Shown: positions 31,318 to 35,621 of the stretch, one piece after another
Position numbering within the stretch: position 1 is the first letter of the stretch
Layout of the letters: the number at the start of each line of letters is the position of its first letter
Origin: Bacteroidia bacterium
GTDB lineage: Bacteria > Bacteroidota > Bacteroidia > Bacteroidales > CAJPTX01
NCBI GenBank assembly: GCA_002749065.1
Contig: PDTX01000003.1
Span: 15,898-79,897 of the forward strand
Reading direction: 5' to 3'
DNA: 64,000 nt
Notes under the pieces: model-generated
The model's input: only the letters and a program-made list of their open reading frames with translations
Told to the model about the DNA's origin: nothing
Databases searched by the model: none
Position numbers and translations under genes: made by a program

Positions 31318-32058
31318 ATGAACTATACCAATCGGCGGAGCATCCGCAGCTACCGCAAGGACCCCATCGACGAGCAGCACCTCTCGGCCATCCTGCGTGG
31401 GGCCCTGCGGGCATCCAACACCGGGAACATGCAGACCTGGAGCGTGGTCGTGACGCGCGACCCGGCCAAGAAGGCCGCCCTGGCACCCTGCCACTTCGGT
31501 CAGCCCATGGTGGAGGCCGCGCCGGTGGTGCTGACCTTCTGCCTGGACTACAACCGGCTGGAGAAGTGGTGCCAGGCCTCGGGCGCGCAGGGCGTGCACT
31601 ACGACAGCCTCATGGCGGTCTATGTCGCCACCATCGACACCATCATCGCCGCGCAGAACGCCGCGGTGGCCGCCGAGGACCTCGGCCTGGGCATCTGCTT
31701 CCTGGGCACGGCCGTCTACAACATGCAGGGGATTATCGACATCCTCAAGCTCCCCCGGGGGGTGGTCCCCGTGACGACCATCACGATGGGCTGGCCCGAC
31801 CAGCTCCCGCCCCTGACCGAGCGTCTGCCCCTCGAGGCCCTCGTGCATCAGGAGGAGTACTGCGAGCGCAGCCCCGAGGAGGTGCGGGCCCTCTACCGCG
31901 ACATTGAGGCCAACCCGGCCAATCAGGCCTTCGTGCGGGAGAACAGCAAGGAGGCCCTGGCCCAGGTGTTCTGCGAGGTGCGCTACAGCCCGGAGTCGTA
32001 CCGCCAGTTCTCGGCCAAAATGCTTGAGGCGCTGCGTGCACAGGGCTTCGCGGTCTAG
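31318..32058 (+). CDS. Nitroreductase family protein (NfsA-like)
   Basis: RRSIRSY, ASNTGNMQ and AAQN..VAAE.LGLGICFLG motifs. Confidence 0.92.
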   Translation: MNYTNRRSIRSYRKDPIDEQHLSAILRGALRASNTGNMQTWSVVVTRDPAKKAALAPCHFGQPMVEAAPVVLTFCLDYNRLEKWCQASGAQGVHYDSLMAVYVATIDTIIAAQNAAVAAEDLGLGICFLGTAVYNMQGIIDILKLPRGVVPVTTITMGWPDQLPPLTERLPLEALVHQEEYCERSPEEVRALYRDIEANPANQAFVRENSKEALAQVFCEVRYSPESYRQFSAKMLEALRAQGFAV

Positions 32059-33664
32059 GCCCTACCGCCTACTCCTATACCTTATCTGCTTCCTGGGAGT
32101 CGTCCCCTCGGCATGGGGGGGCGACTCCCTTCGCTTCGTGGGCGGGCTGCCCAGCGACTACCGTACGGACTGCGTGTACCCCCTCCCGCTCGATACGCTG
32201 CGCCTGCGGCGAGGCCTCTCGCACTGCCTCGACCGGCTACGGGCGGCGGGCTACCTCGAGGCCAGCCTGGATGGGGTGCTGCTGACCACCGACAGCACGG
32301 GGCGGCAGGCCGTATCGGGCGAGGTATCGCTGCATCTCGGGCCGCGCTACTACCTCTCGGGCGGCGACGACCGGGCCTACACCCCCGAGACGCTCCGCGC
32401 GGAGCTGGAGGGGCTCGCGCGGCGCGATAGCCTCGGCGCGTCGCAGCGCCTGGAGTACCACCAGCGGGTGGTGGCCCCGGGGCGCGTGGGCCTCTGGGTG
32501 GCGGGCGCGGAGCCGCTGAGAATGCCCCTTGCGGGTCTTGTGCAGGAGGGGGGAGAGGTGCTCCGCCCGGGCGTGCTGCTCCGTCTGGCGGGCTTGCGGC
32601 TGGGCGACAGCCTGACGGCGGAGGGGATGCATGCGGCGGCCGCCAGCCTAGGGCGTTTCCCCTACCTGCTCGTGGCCAGGCCATCGGCCGTGGATAATCG
32701 TGCCGAGGGGGCCACGCTGCATCTCTACCTGGAGAGGCGGGCGGCCAGCCATGCCGAGGGGGTGCTGGCCCTCGCACCCCGGCAGGGGCGGGGGGGGACG
32801 GACTGGGCCATCGATGGGGACGTACGTCTGCTCAACCTGCTGCGCTTCGGGGAGAGCTTCCGCTTCACCTTCCGGGGGCGGGAGGGGGGCGACCGCCACC
32901 TGCATATGTCCACTGACTGGCCCGTGGTTCTGTCCAGCCGCTGGGGCGTGGGGGCGAGCTTCCGCCTGAAGAGCCAGCGGGGCTACGGGCGCAGCTACAG
33001 CGCGATGGGCTACACCGCCTACCTGGTGGATGTGCGCCAGCGTGTGGGGCTGGAGCTGGCCCATGGCCAGTCGGCCGACGAGCAGACCCTGAGCGTGGAG
33101 AGCACCAGCCTGGGGCTGAGGTATAATTACACCAGCCGTCGCTACCATGGCGCGTGGTCGAGGGGTAGGGAGGGGATGCTGCGGGTCTCCATCGCCCGCC
33201 GTAGGGCCTCGGACGGGGCGCGCGGCACGCTCCTGGCCTACGAAGGGGAGCTGCGCCCCAGCTGGACCATCGGCCGGCGGTGGTACCTCGATGCCAGCGT
33301 GCTGGGCCGGGGGCTCTTCCCCTTTGGGGCTGTGCCGCTCCTGGGGATAGAGCAGCTGACGCTCGGGGGGCGCGACGGGCTGTGGGGCTACCACGACGGT
33401 GCGCTCCGCACGCGGGTCTACGGGTTGGTGGGGGCTGAGCCCGGTCTGCAGGCGGGTCGTTGGTTGCGCCTTGGGCTTATCGCCTCCGTGGGGGCGGTGC
33501 ATGCCTCGGGGGGGGGCTTTGTGGCCATGGGTGGGGGGCTGTCCGCCACGGCCAGGACCGACCGTGGGCATCTGGCCCTGCGCGTAGCCCGGGGCTGGGA
33601 CACCCGTCCGTCGGCCAGTCCCTCGAGCCTCATGCTGCACCTCGAGCTGCGCCTGCTCTTCTAG
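32036..33664 (+). CDS. Outer-membrane beta-barrel protein, BamA/TamA-like (start uncertain)
   Basis: Signal-like segment after GTG 32036; GYLEAS POTRA-like segment, L.NLL.FGE, LGG..GL.GY and terminal Phe. Confidence 0.65.
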   Translation: MHRASRSRPYRLLLYLICFLGVVPSAWGGDSLRFVGGLPSDYRTDCVYPLPLDTLRLRRGLSHCLDRLRAAGYLEASLDGVLLTTDSTGRQAVSGEVSLHLGPRYYLSGGDDRAYTPETLRAELEGLARRDSLGASQRLEYHQRVVAPGRVGLWVAGAEPLRMPLAGLVQEGGEVLRPGVLLRLAGLRLGDSLTAEGMHAAAASLGRFPYLLVARPSAVDNRAEGATLHLYLERRAASHAEGVLALAPRQGRGGTDWAIDGDVRLLNLLRFGESFRFTFRGREGGDRHLHMSTDWPVVLSSRWGVGASFRLKSQRGYGRSYSAMGYTAYLVDVRQRVGLELAHGQSADEQTLSVESTSLGLRYNYTSRRYHGAWSRGREGMLRVSIARRRASDGARGTLLAYEGELRPSWTIGRRWYLDASVLGRGLFPFGAVPLLGIEQLTLGGRDGLWGYHDGALRTRVYGLVGAEPGLQAGRWLRLGLIASVGAVHASGGGFVAMGGGLSATARTDRGHLALRVARGWDTRPSASPSSLMLHLELRLLF

Positions 33665-33745: not shown

Positions 33746-34543
33746 ATGAGCATGGAGGAAGGCTTCGGCATGCCGATGCCCCCGCGGACCGACCCGGCGC
33801 TGGGTATCCAGTGGGTGAGGGTGGAGGGTGGCCGGTTCCTGATGGGCAGCCCGGCCGATGAGGAGGGGCGGGGAGATGATGAGTGGCAGCACGAGGTGAA
33901 GCTCTCGGGCTTCTGGATGAGCGCGACGGTGGTGACCAACGCGCAGTACAATGCCTTCCTGAAGGCGATGGAGGCCAAGGGGGGCGGGGTGTGGAAGAGG
34001 GTGGGGAGGAGCGGTTCGGCTTACAATTTGAACACAAACTCCGGGTACTTCTATGAGGGAGCGCAGCCGGTGGTGGGCGTTACTTGGGACGATGCCATGG
34101 CCTTCTGCGAGTGGGTGGGGAATGGCGTGACCCTGCCAACGGAGGCGCAGTGGGAGTACGCTTGCCGCGCGGGGAGCAAAGCGGCATATGGCATGGGTGC
34201 GGACGGGGTCCAGGTAAATGGTTTCAATTTGGGAGATTATGCCTGGTATGATAAAAACGCGGGTCGCAGGACGCATGCGGTGGGTAAGAAAAGGGCCAAT
34301 GCTTTCGGTCTATACGATATGCACGGGAATGTGTGGGAGTGGTGCTCGGACTGGTATGCGCGCTACGAGGACAGCCCGAAGAGGAACCCCCTTGGCCCGA
34401 TGGATGGCACTGACCGTGTGGTTCGTGGTGGTAGCTGGGGCGATGGGCCACGCGTCTGTCGCTGCGCAAGTCGGGGTCGCATGGACCCTATGGATAGGGT
34501 CATTTTCTTGGGTTTCCGCCTGGTCGCTCCGCTCGAGCCCTAG
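33746..34543 (+). CDS. FGE-sulfatase (SUMF1 / C-type lectin fold) protein without signal peptide
   Basis: GGRFLMGS, VTNAQY, PVV.VTWDDA, LPTEAQWEYACRAG, GLYDMHGNVWEWC, RGGSW and GFR motifs; no catalytic CxxxxC. Confidence 0.93.
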   Translation: MSMEEGFGMPMPPRTDPALGIQWVRVEGGRFLMGSPADEEGRGDDEWQHEVKLSGFWMSATVVTNAQYNAFLKAMEAKGGGVWKRVGRSGSAYNLNTNSGYFYEGAQPVVGVTWDDAMAFCEWVGNGVTLPTEAQWEYACRAGSKAAYGMGADGVQVNGFNLGDYAWYDKNAGRRTHAVGKKRANAFGLYDMHGNVWEWCSDWYARYEDSPKRNPLGPMDGTDRVVRGGSWGDGPRVCRCASRGRMDPMDRVIFLGFRLVAPLEP

Positions 34544-34645
34544 TTCTGCAATGGCAAATTGCGGAATATTCGAATGTGCAGTATTCGAATATATTCCTAT
34601 CTTTCGCATTGTGTAGCGGTGTTGCTACGCGTAAAAACAATTCTT

Positions 34646-35503
34646 ATGATGAAGCGAATGCTAATTCCTGCTTTGATGCTGTCACTCGGGCTGGTATTGT
34701 TGTACGGTTGTGGTGGTGGGGGGAGTGCTAGTAGCGCAGTTTCTTCAAATTTACAGCCCCCGCAGACTGACCCGACGCTGGGCATCCAGTGGGTGAGGGT
34801 GGAGGGCGGCCGGTTCCTGATGGGTAGCCCGGACGAGGAGAAGGGGCCCTATGACGATCAGAGTCCGCAGTGCGAGGTGGAGGTTTCCGGCTTTCTGATG
34901 AGCGCGACGGAGGTGACCAACGCGCAGTACAATATGTTCCTAGAGGCGATGGAGGCCAGGGGGGGCGAGGTGTGGGAGAGGGTGAAGTGGAGCGGCGCGA
35001 GTAACCCCGGGTTGCAATCGAAGTTCAAGGGGGATAGGCAGCCGGTGGTGTGCGTTTCATGGGATGATGCCATGGCCTTCTGCGAGTGGGTGGGGAATGG
35101 TGTGACCCTGCCGACGGAGGCGCAGTGGGAGTACGCCTGCCGCGCGGGGAGCACTGGTCGTTTCTGCTTCGGCGAGGACGAGGCGCAGCTGGGCGACTAC
35201 GCCTGGTATAATGAGAATGCGGGTGATGCGACGCACGTAGTGGCAGGGAAGAAGGCCAATGCGTGGGGTTTATACGATATGCACGGGAATGTGTGGGAGT
35301 GGTGCTCGGACTGGTACGATGCCCATACGGCCGAGCCGGTGAAGGACCCCACTGGTCCGACGGATGGTTTCACCCACGTGCTTCGGGGTGGTAGCTGGAG
35401 CGATATCGAGGTCAGCTATTGTCGCTCCGCGTTTCGGGCTGGGGCCGCTAGCTCTAGAACTGGTAGCTTGGGCTTCCGCTTGGTCGCCCCGCTCGAGCCC
35501 TAG
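34646..35503 (+). CDS. FGE-sulfatase (C-type lectin fold) lipoprotein, paralogue of the upstream gene
   Basis: Same motifs plus signal peptide with lipobox LYGC and Gly/Ser linker. Confidence 0.93.
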   Translation: MMKRMLIPALMLSLGLVLLYGCGGGGSASSAVSSNLQPPQTDPTLGIQWVRVEGGRFLMGSPDEEKGPYDDQSPQCEVEVSGFLMSATEVTNAQYNMFLEAMEARGGEVWERVKWSGASNPGLQSKFKGDRQPVVCVSWDDAMAFCEWVGNGVTLPTEAQWEYACRAGSTGRFCFGEDEAQLGDYAWYNENAGDATHVVAGKKANAWGLYDMHGNVWEWCSDWYDAHTAEPVKDPTGPTDGFTHVLRGGSWSDIEVSYCRSAFRAGAASSRTGSLGFRLVAPLEP

Positions 35504-35621
35504 TCCCCTGGCGGCGGATGCTGGGTCTGCCGCAAGTACCTTCGAAACGCCTAATCATTGAACAAAAGCCCTCTTCGCGACCTTTACTAGAGTGGTGGAA
35601 TATTCGCATATGGACAACTGA

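Follow-up and report, generated by a model that had tools for sequence, protein, structure and literature searches.

The tandem genes A and B of the analysed window (the whole stretch of 64,000 nucleotides, C15:15898-79897 of the source assembly G000, which comprises 1.32 Mb and is 74% complete) are very probably former targets, now retired, of an HRDC-type DGR that lies on contig C5 of the same assembly. A sequence-only reading of the window had described two tandem FGE-type lectin genes without a reverse transcriptase (RT) or template repeat (TR), had taken them for remote or retired DGR targets, and had asked for a genome-wide search for the template. Both genes are intact ORFs with a PF03781 domain (Table 1). 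An RT family search of the whole assembly finds a single RT, which lies on C5 as does the TR, so the window indeed holds neither, and A and B are paralogous to this DGR's targets. The proposal that they are retired therefore stands. That they are live remote targets is unsupported, given ∼25% non-adenine mismatch to the TR, two indels, no homogenisation of third codon positions and the absence of the downstream tag described below; from such features we infer that A and B are inactive as targets.

Table 1. Features of the window (plain coordinates) and of contig C5 of G000.
Feature	Position	Strand	Remarks
Gene A	33746-34543	+	265 aa, intact ORF, PF03781 E 1.5e-57
Gene B	34646-35503	+	285 aa, intact ORF, PF03781 E 4.3e-58
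Probable fossil variable repeat of A	34409-34543	+	Colinear with the 135-nt TR, C5:78522-78388
Probable fossil variable repeat of B	35369-35503	+	One codon inserted, one deleted relative to TR
Earlier-noted hairpin after A	34544-34566	+	9-bp stem, 5-nt loop, one G-T pair; not the antisense-spacer tag
Perfect inverted repeat	34566-34592		10-bp arms, 7-nt loop, upstream of B leader
Promoter/leader module of B	34570-34645	+	From upstream alignment; homologous to leaders of t1-t3 and C8
Earlier-noted hairpin after B	35511-35533	+	9-bp stem, 5-nt loop, two G-T pairs; + strand only
DGR cassette	G000:C5:81175-76180	-	Order t1-HRDC-RT-TR-t2-t3
t1	ends C5:80157	-	Local FGE target
HRDC gene	starts C5:80002	-	Overlaps RT in another frame
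RT	starts C5:79536	-	335 aa, YMDD
TR	C5:78522-78388	-	135 nt, 29 adenines, none at codon position 3
t2	ends C5:77209	-	Local FGE target
t3	ends C5:76180	-	Local FGE target

The C5 cassette has a YxDD RT, a TR, an HRDC gene and an adenine-biased variable repeat (VR), and is thus an HRDC-type DGR (architecture C of Wu et al.); no Avd match above the cut-off is found in the assembly. HRDC homologues stand beside 74/80 of the closest RT loci, which are mostly Bacteroidota by their record titles, and viral relatives of the RT reach 27-41% identity only. In the genus relatives, several of them incomplete assemblies, the DGR RT is matched in 0/13. The cassette and the A/B pair are on separate contigs, with at least about 50 kb between them. 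Neighbours of the cassette include queA-like and AAA-ATPase-like genes, phage genes were not seen in the stretch around it, and t2 contains an internal duplication of 14 residues in its scaffold (the TNAQYNAFL segment).

Compared with the TR, the VR of A has mismatches at 20/29 adenines and 27/106 non-adenine sites, and that of B at 18/29 adenines and 26/103 non-adenine sites, so that mismatches are enriched at adenines in both (p 2e-5 and 3e-4). A TR-colinear C-terminal segment that combines adenine-biased mismatch with drift is what marks a retired target, and both genes have one. The genome contains nine short FGE paralogues, and their non-adenine mismatches to this TR range from 1 of 106 in t1, through 4 in t3, 5 in t2, 15 in C8:25k and 18 in C15:265k, to the values of B and A just given and on to 37/106 in C15:161k and 39/106 in C15:225k. 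The value of A and B lies in this natural experiment, in which nine paralogues form a series from 1 to 39 non-adenine mismatches against a single template.

As the TR has no adenines at third codon positions, each homing event should reset these positions. In t1, t2 and t3 they differ from the TR at 0/45, 2/45 and 1/45, far under the 19-25% between the targets' own scaffolds (p 2e-4 to 7e-3). The corresponding figures for A and B are 21/45 and 17/44, not under the 26-32% of their scaffolds. This contrast indicates that, since their divergence, t1-t3 have been renewed from the TR and A and B have not. Between A and B themselves, differences are found at 24/27 TR-adenine sites, against 15/43 third positions and 10/59 other sites (Fisher p 7e-6 for TR-adenine sites versus third positions). 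When the codons beside the indels are left out, 15/17 TR-adenine sites versus 10/35 third positions differ; pairs of cassette targets differ at 17-20/28 TR-adenine sites. Since change is faster than synonymous at exactly the TR-adenine sites, we infer that A and B were once DGR targets and were randomised separately. This excess could also stem from positive selection on binding loops.

Three other explanations have to be considered. It is unlikely that a second DGR, located in the unassembled quarter of the genome, has A and B as live targets. The incomplete assembly leaves room for one, leftovers of another DGR type are described for Treponema denticola SP32 in the sections seen of PMC4891356, and A and B agree on 13 non-adenine states unlike the C5 TR, as a different template would give. 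These common states would go back to common ancestry, to gene conversion or to an older version of the TR. Against a second template, the two VRs differ at 49/132 sites, 15 of them third positions, plus two indels; a single template for both would need at least 37% adenine, third positions included, and the known TR has 21%, with none there. An adenine-tolerant genome scan gives the C5 TR as the best match to the VR of A and found this TR alone. The scan was ungapped, and B was therefore also scanned in three parts, without a distinct match. No other template-like match is found in the assembly or in the 13 genus relatives, and the downstream flanks of A and B look mutually unrelated by eye. 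Less likely still is that A and B never were DGR targets, and are ordinary duplicates with binding loops that diverged under positive selection. The adenine-templated positions are unconstrained loop residues anyway, and the NNY codon signal is family-wide, with at least 11/13 pyrimidine-ending codons in 47/53 scorable homologue segments from 77 metagenomic loci. The earlier counts for this signal, 11/13 and 12/13, were made against an assumed template; the signal itself is confirmed, and with the real template the AAC/GAC codons end in C or T in 12/13 cases in A (6 in T) and 13/13 in B (8 in T), compared with scaffold C/T frequencies at codon ends of 0.45 (A) and 0.44 (B). Past targeting is favoured by the 25/26 variable codons that keep the third-base pyrimidine of the template, by the leader module and 62-73% protein identity that A and B have in common with the cassette targets, and by the expansion of short FGE genes, which is confined to G000 and its sister genome G009 (9 FGE matches in G009, 3 in G007 and 2 in each of eleven other genus members).

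Least likely of all, and hardly probable, is that the C5 TR still acts on A and B as live remote targets, with heavy non-canonical mutagenesis. Their mismatches are still enriched at adenines, and the sections seen of Wu et al. 2018 (PMC5758913) report remote targets and non-adenine changes for non-phage DGRs, including natural targets with up to 11 non-adenine differences and indels, which are read there as possible non-canonical mutagenesis. The 26-27 non-adenine mismatches of A and B exceed this published maximum, and 72/81 VR-like segments in related loci have five or fewer. The mismatches are also mostly at third positions (21/27 in A, 18/26 in B), which homing would reset, and 5 of the last 36 nt differ from the TR. 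According to the same sections, a remote target is accepted only when its VR-TR differences are A-to-N, with minor exceptions allowed. The cognate RT and TR that Wu et al. look for in the same genome are present in the C5 cassette; the differences of A and B are not restricted to adenines, and B has indels as well. Since 7/81 segments have 15 or more non-adenine mismatches, decayed copies recur in the HRDC lineage. In other Bacteroidota cassettes (L196, L215, L224, L231 and L237), decayed target paralogues are seen beside template-matched ones.

The 3' ends, on which the sequence-only reading had relied, say little about targeting. It is correct that the last 37 nt of A and B differ at 3 bases. 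As 137/702 overlapping 37-nt windows of the A/B alignment show 3 differences or fewer, and as longer identical runs (46 nt and 35 nt) occur upstream of the gene ends, this shared end is not special and not diagnostic. The end is coding-conserved, and 5/36 of the last nucleotides differ from the TR in both genes, compared with 0-2 in the cassette targets; a TR-matching 3' end (the IMH/IMH* of Wu et al. 2018) is absent from A and B. Hairpins do exist after both stop codons, as had been noted, but they are imperfect, and A is followed by a stronger repeat distinct from its hairpin. This perfect inverted repeat is longer than in 300/300 shuffles and is, by its position, possibly operator-like. The hairpin after B is no more stable than shuffles (z -0.4 on the + strand, +1.0 on the - strand), and an origin of this hairpin as a remnant of the TR flank was rejected (p 0.21). 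The perfect, GC-rich 7-10-bp stem with a 4-nt GRNA loop known from BPP-1 is absent after A and B. It discriminates little in the HRDC lineage, since it is rare in template-matched targets too, with perfect stems of at least 7 bp after only 3/66 template-matched VRs in related loci. As support for DGR targets, the conserved IMH and the hairpins are thus weak. The two compensating one-codon indels that had been described are real, and both lie in B relative to the TR.

A different downstream element emerges from the comparison of paralogues and related loci. A T[GA]AGC motif is found 25-60 nt beyond the GFR codons in 44/55 loci (against a mean of 4 and a maximum of 9 in shuffles), and it forms the end of a sequence reverse-complementary to the cognate TR spacer's first 20-30 nt. 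Here, we call this antisense copy of the start of the TR spacer, located after the stop codon, the tag; it is a criterion defined in this analysis and not a published one. In the related loci, which were those of RT homologues (L184-L263), 64/72 template-matched VRs beat all 100 shuffles in the antisense-spacer test and 8/72 did not, and the median score was 41 for cognate versus 18 for non-cognate spacers. Of seven decayed paralogues, six failed to beat the shuffles. Spacer and tag co-vary in columns 6-17 across 19 dereplicated loci, with 170/228 matches (permutation mean 83, maximum 116); these loci were drawn from 48 anchorable ones (11 VRs from 9 loci were not anchorable), and kin among them are not fully independent. 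The cognate spacer is the unique best match in just 12/19 clusters. Using an independent repeat-finding method, the tag was found in 39/57 cellular loci versus 2/42 phage DGRs.

In G000, a 13/14-nt tag is present after t1 and after C15:265k (p 0.0015 each) and occurs genome-wide at one further, unrelated place. It is absent after A (p 1.0) and B (p 0.74), and also after t2, t3, C8, 225k and 161k. As t2 and t3 match the TR closely and yet have no tag, tag loss is only a putative cause of decay. A whole-flank RNA duplex test was weak (t1 p 0.05, 265k p 0.31); such energies are too blunt for this GC-rich genome. Nor was t1 scored by a weight matrix made for the downstream motif across the lineage, as the spacer of the C5 cassette has its own sequence. 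Past t2 (C5:77209-77100) comes the TR's own 3' flank (p 0.001), which suggests a recent VR-TR recombination, and t2 and t3 may be newly retired. The TR's own 3' flank also follows a paralogue in G009 (C33:6794-7071, p 0.001), and G009:C118 has a further piece of it. The arrangement suggests VR-TR recombination that deleted HRDC and RT as a route to DGR loss in G009.

How the cDNA of a DGR finds and enters its target is called unresolved in the portions consulted of recent papers. Naorem 2017 (PMC5703328, as far as consulted) proposes pairing between the cDNA-linked spacer RNA and the DNA of the target at the 3' end of the VR. Spacer plus antisense cDNA is colinear with the lower strand of the target, so the geometry of the tag fits this model, and in the HRDC lineage the tag likely pairs with the cDNA-linked RNA primer. 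The primer-IMH pairing modelled for BPP-1 in that paper has a similar geometry. Unlike in BPP-1, the complementary tag of the HRDC lineage sits past the stop codon, outside the TR/VR repeat. The Bordetella BPP-1 target site consists of (GC)14, IMH and stem-loop according to the part of Guo 2011 (PMC3240598) consulted, and BPP-1 uses Avd and a perfect 7-10-bp GC-rich stem with a GRNA loop, whereas perfect stems are rare in the HRDC lineage. Inverted repeats are given for 34% of DGRs in the sections seen of PMC5758913. An antisense tag in HRDC DGRs is undescribed in a full-text literature search, supplements and most subscription papers excepted, and is likewise absent from the portions consulted of PMC5758913, PMC12875486, PMC8867640, PMC6182149, 10.1101/2023.10.23.563531, 10.64898/2026.09.22.753630 and 10.1101/2024.11.15.621889. 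With the tag, the 2017 primer-pairing model can be tested directly by swap and rescue, and live targets can be separated from retired ones by a sequence rule.

Retirement of A and B would have proceeded as follows. Promoter-plus-target modules would have been duplicated out of the cassette, which is consistent with the homology of these modules. While still addressable, each copy would then have been randomised separately at its adenine-templated codons, as the excess at adenine sites suggests. The copies, which have no antisense copy of the TR spacer (14-30 nt) after the stop codon today, would next have lost it, with a putative causal role for that loss. Ordinary mutation would have eroded the match to the TR while selection kept the fold, in line with the purifying selection on B. 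A and B are probably fixed because they are without a downstream tag that would dock the RNA-cDNA.

Taken alone, A and B are new cases of known decayed ex-targets, as in Treponema denticola and cyanobacteria, and an ordinary, already described outcome of DGR evolution. What the comparison of paralogues exposed is a lineage-wide, co-varying complement of spacer RNA and post-target DNA. Plausible, though on balance slightly doubtful, is the joint reading in which an RNA code, the 14-30-nt antisense spacer copy, addresses HRDC targets, replaces the cruciform and holds the cDNA-linked primer in place, and in which tagless copies are frozen and export fixed lectin specificities. If true, the element would work as a factory spreading such specificities over the chromosome, with A and B as two products in a nine-gene decay series.

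In the case of T. denticola (the TvpA family; Nimkulrat et al. 2016, PMC4891356, in the sections seen), the likeness includes an HRDC gene that overlaps the RT, the failure to find an Avd, several CLec targets of the FGE type, mostly lipoproteins, located both within the core and at a distance from it, and targets with excess VR mutations described as "suspicious" or leftover. In contrast to that system, the host of the C5 DGR belongs to Bacteroidota and its TR is downstream of the RT, and A and B, with ∼25% non-adenine mismatch, are far more decayed than the Treponema remote targets. Cyanobacterial CLec paralogues (Vallota-Eastman et al. 2020, PMC7517822, as far as consulted) are similarly dispersed and have remnant TR-VR homology, and the idea is put forward there that diversification is removed after a variant is selected. 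In contrast to A and B, most of them are cytosolic fusions with a kinase or peptidase, and retirement was scored by a 50% identity cut-off, whereas a third-position clock and a cis tag are used for A and B.

At the protein level, the two genes had been described as FGE-type lectin genes and likened to lipoprotein DGR targets such as TvpA. The FGE type holds for both, as PF03781 is found in each; by inspection, a lipoprotein signal is seen in B and not in A. The fold was modelled for B alone, and the domain model (pLDDT 87) has TM 0.77 to FGE and TM 0.72 to TvpA (2y3c), which also matches B in sequence (E 8.7e-28). B has a signal peptide ending at Cys22 (by inspection, no predictor), while A begins a few residues ahead of the domain and has no signal peptide (by inspection). 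SUMF1/FGE thus has the same fold as B and belongs to the same Pfam family as both genes. FGE enzymes have two catalytic cysteines in a C-terminal loop. Unlike in Streptomyces FGE, the first Cys of this C-terminal pair is absent in B when aligned to 6muj/2q17; it is also missing from A (by inspection), and neither protein reaches an NCBIfam equivalog cut-off. Because this first Cys is missing, A and B would be TvpA-like binding proteins rather than enzymes. The scaffold of B has dN/dS 0.27-0.28, with 0.24-0.27 for t1, t2, t3 and 265k among themselves, whereas A has 0.40-0.49 versus the cassette targets and 0.54 versus B. These ratios indicate purifying selection on B and possibly relaxed selection on A. 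It is likely that B is a membrane-anchored, ligand-binding predicted lipoprotein (receptor or adhesin) of fixed specificity. In the upstream alignment, the leader of A has lost part of the module common to B and t1-t3; given this eroded promoter and the lack of a signal peptide, A is likely cytoplasmic or decaying. Residues ∼145-165 of A form a loop insertion that is also seen in G009 paralogues and P0016/P0028 and is missing from B and t1-t3. With this insertion and the 35-46-nt runs identical to B, A is probably a mosaic formed by gene conversion.

A and B are flanked by phoH and, upstream, by a gene of 586 aa (window 31904-33664) that has no Pfam or NCBIfam match. Its homologues, with 24-33% identity, occur in 4/5 genus relatives, and by inspection the product is outer-membrane-barrel-like. 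The order phoH-purC is kept among relatives. Neither an FGE gene nor a homologue of the 586-aa gene was found beside phoH in the loci of 11 relatives, and synteny gives no date for the insertion of A and B, as phoH has no FGE neighbour there. In G009, the gene next to phoH is efflux-like (by inspection). Sigma-70 and terminator scans were uninformative. The synonymous divergence of A and B from t1/t3 is 0.24-0.34. Between G000 and G009 it is 0.50 for phoH and 0.47 for purC, and since the values of A and B are below these, the copies probably arose after the split of the two genomes; gene conversion could shorten this clock. A tree of the paralogues, without the fragment G009_C80b, splits off the G009 copies together with 225k and 161k (87% support) and leaves the order of duplication unresolved, with supports of 34-39 within the G000 group. 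The nearest homologue of B found outside has 71% identity, and the clusters are small, with 1 member for A and 2 each for t3 and RT (5/8 queries were not in the collection).

Two further paralogues are worth describing. C15:265616-264839 (265k, L006) is a remote copy of t1 with a near-identical N-terminus, a t1-like flank and the tag. It has few synonymous and many amino-acid-changing non-adenine differences and one extra codon, and its leader contains a GAAAC tandem array. 265k is the best candidate for a remote target that is still live or has only just been retired. The VR of C8:25604-24867 (L009) keeps C at 13/13 variable third positions and has 8 differences in the last 36 nt. Clusters of the same paralogues appear to be held by the assemblies P0010, P0013, P0016 and P0028 (longest contig 46748 each) and by P0015 and P0021 (109881 each).
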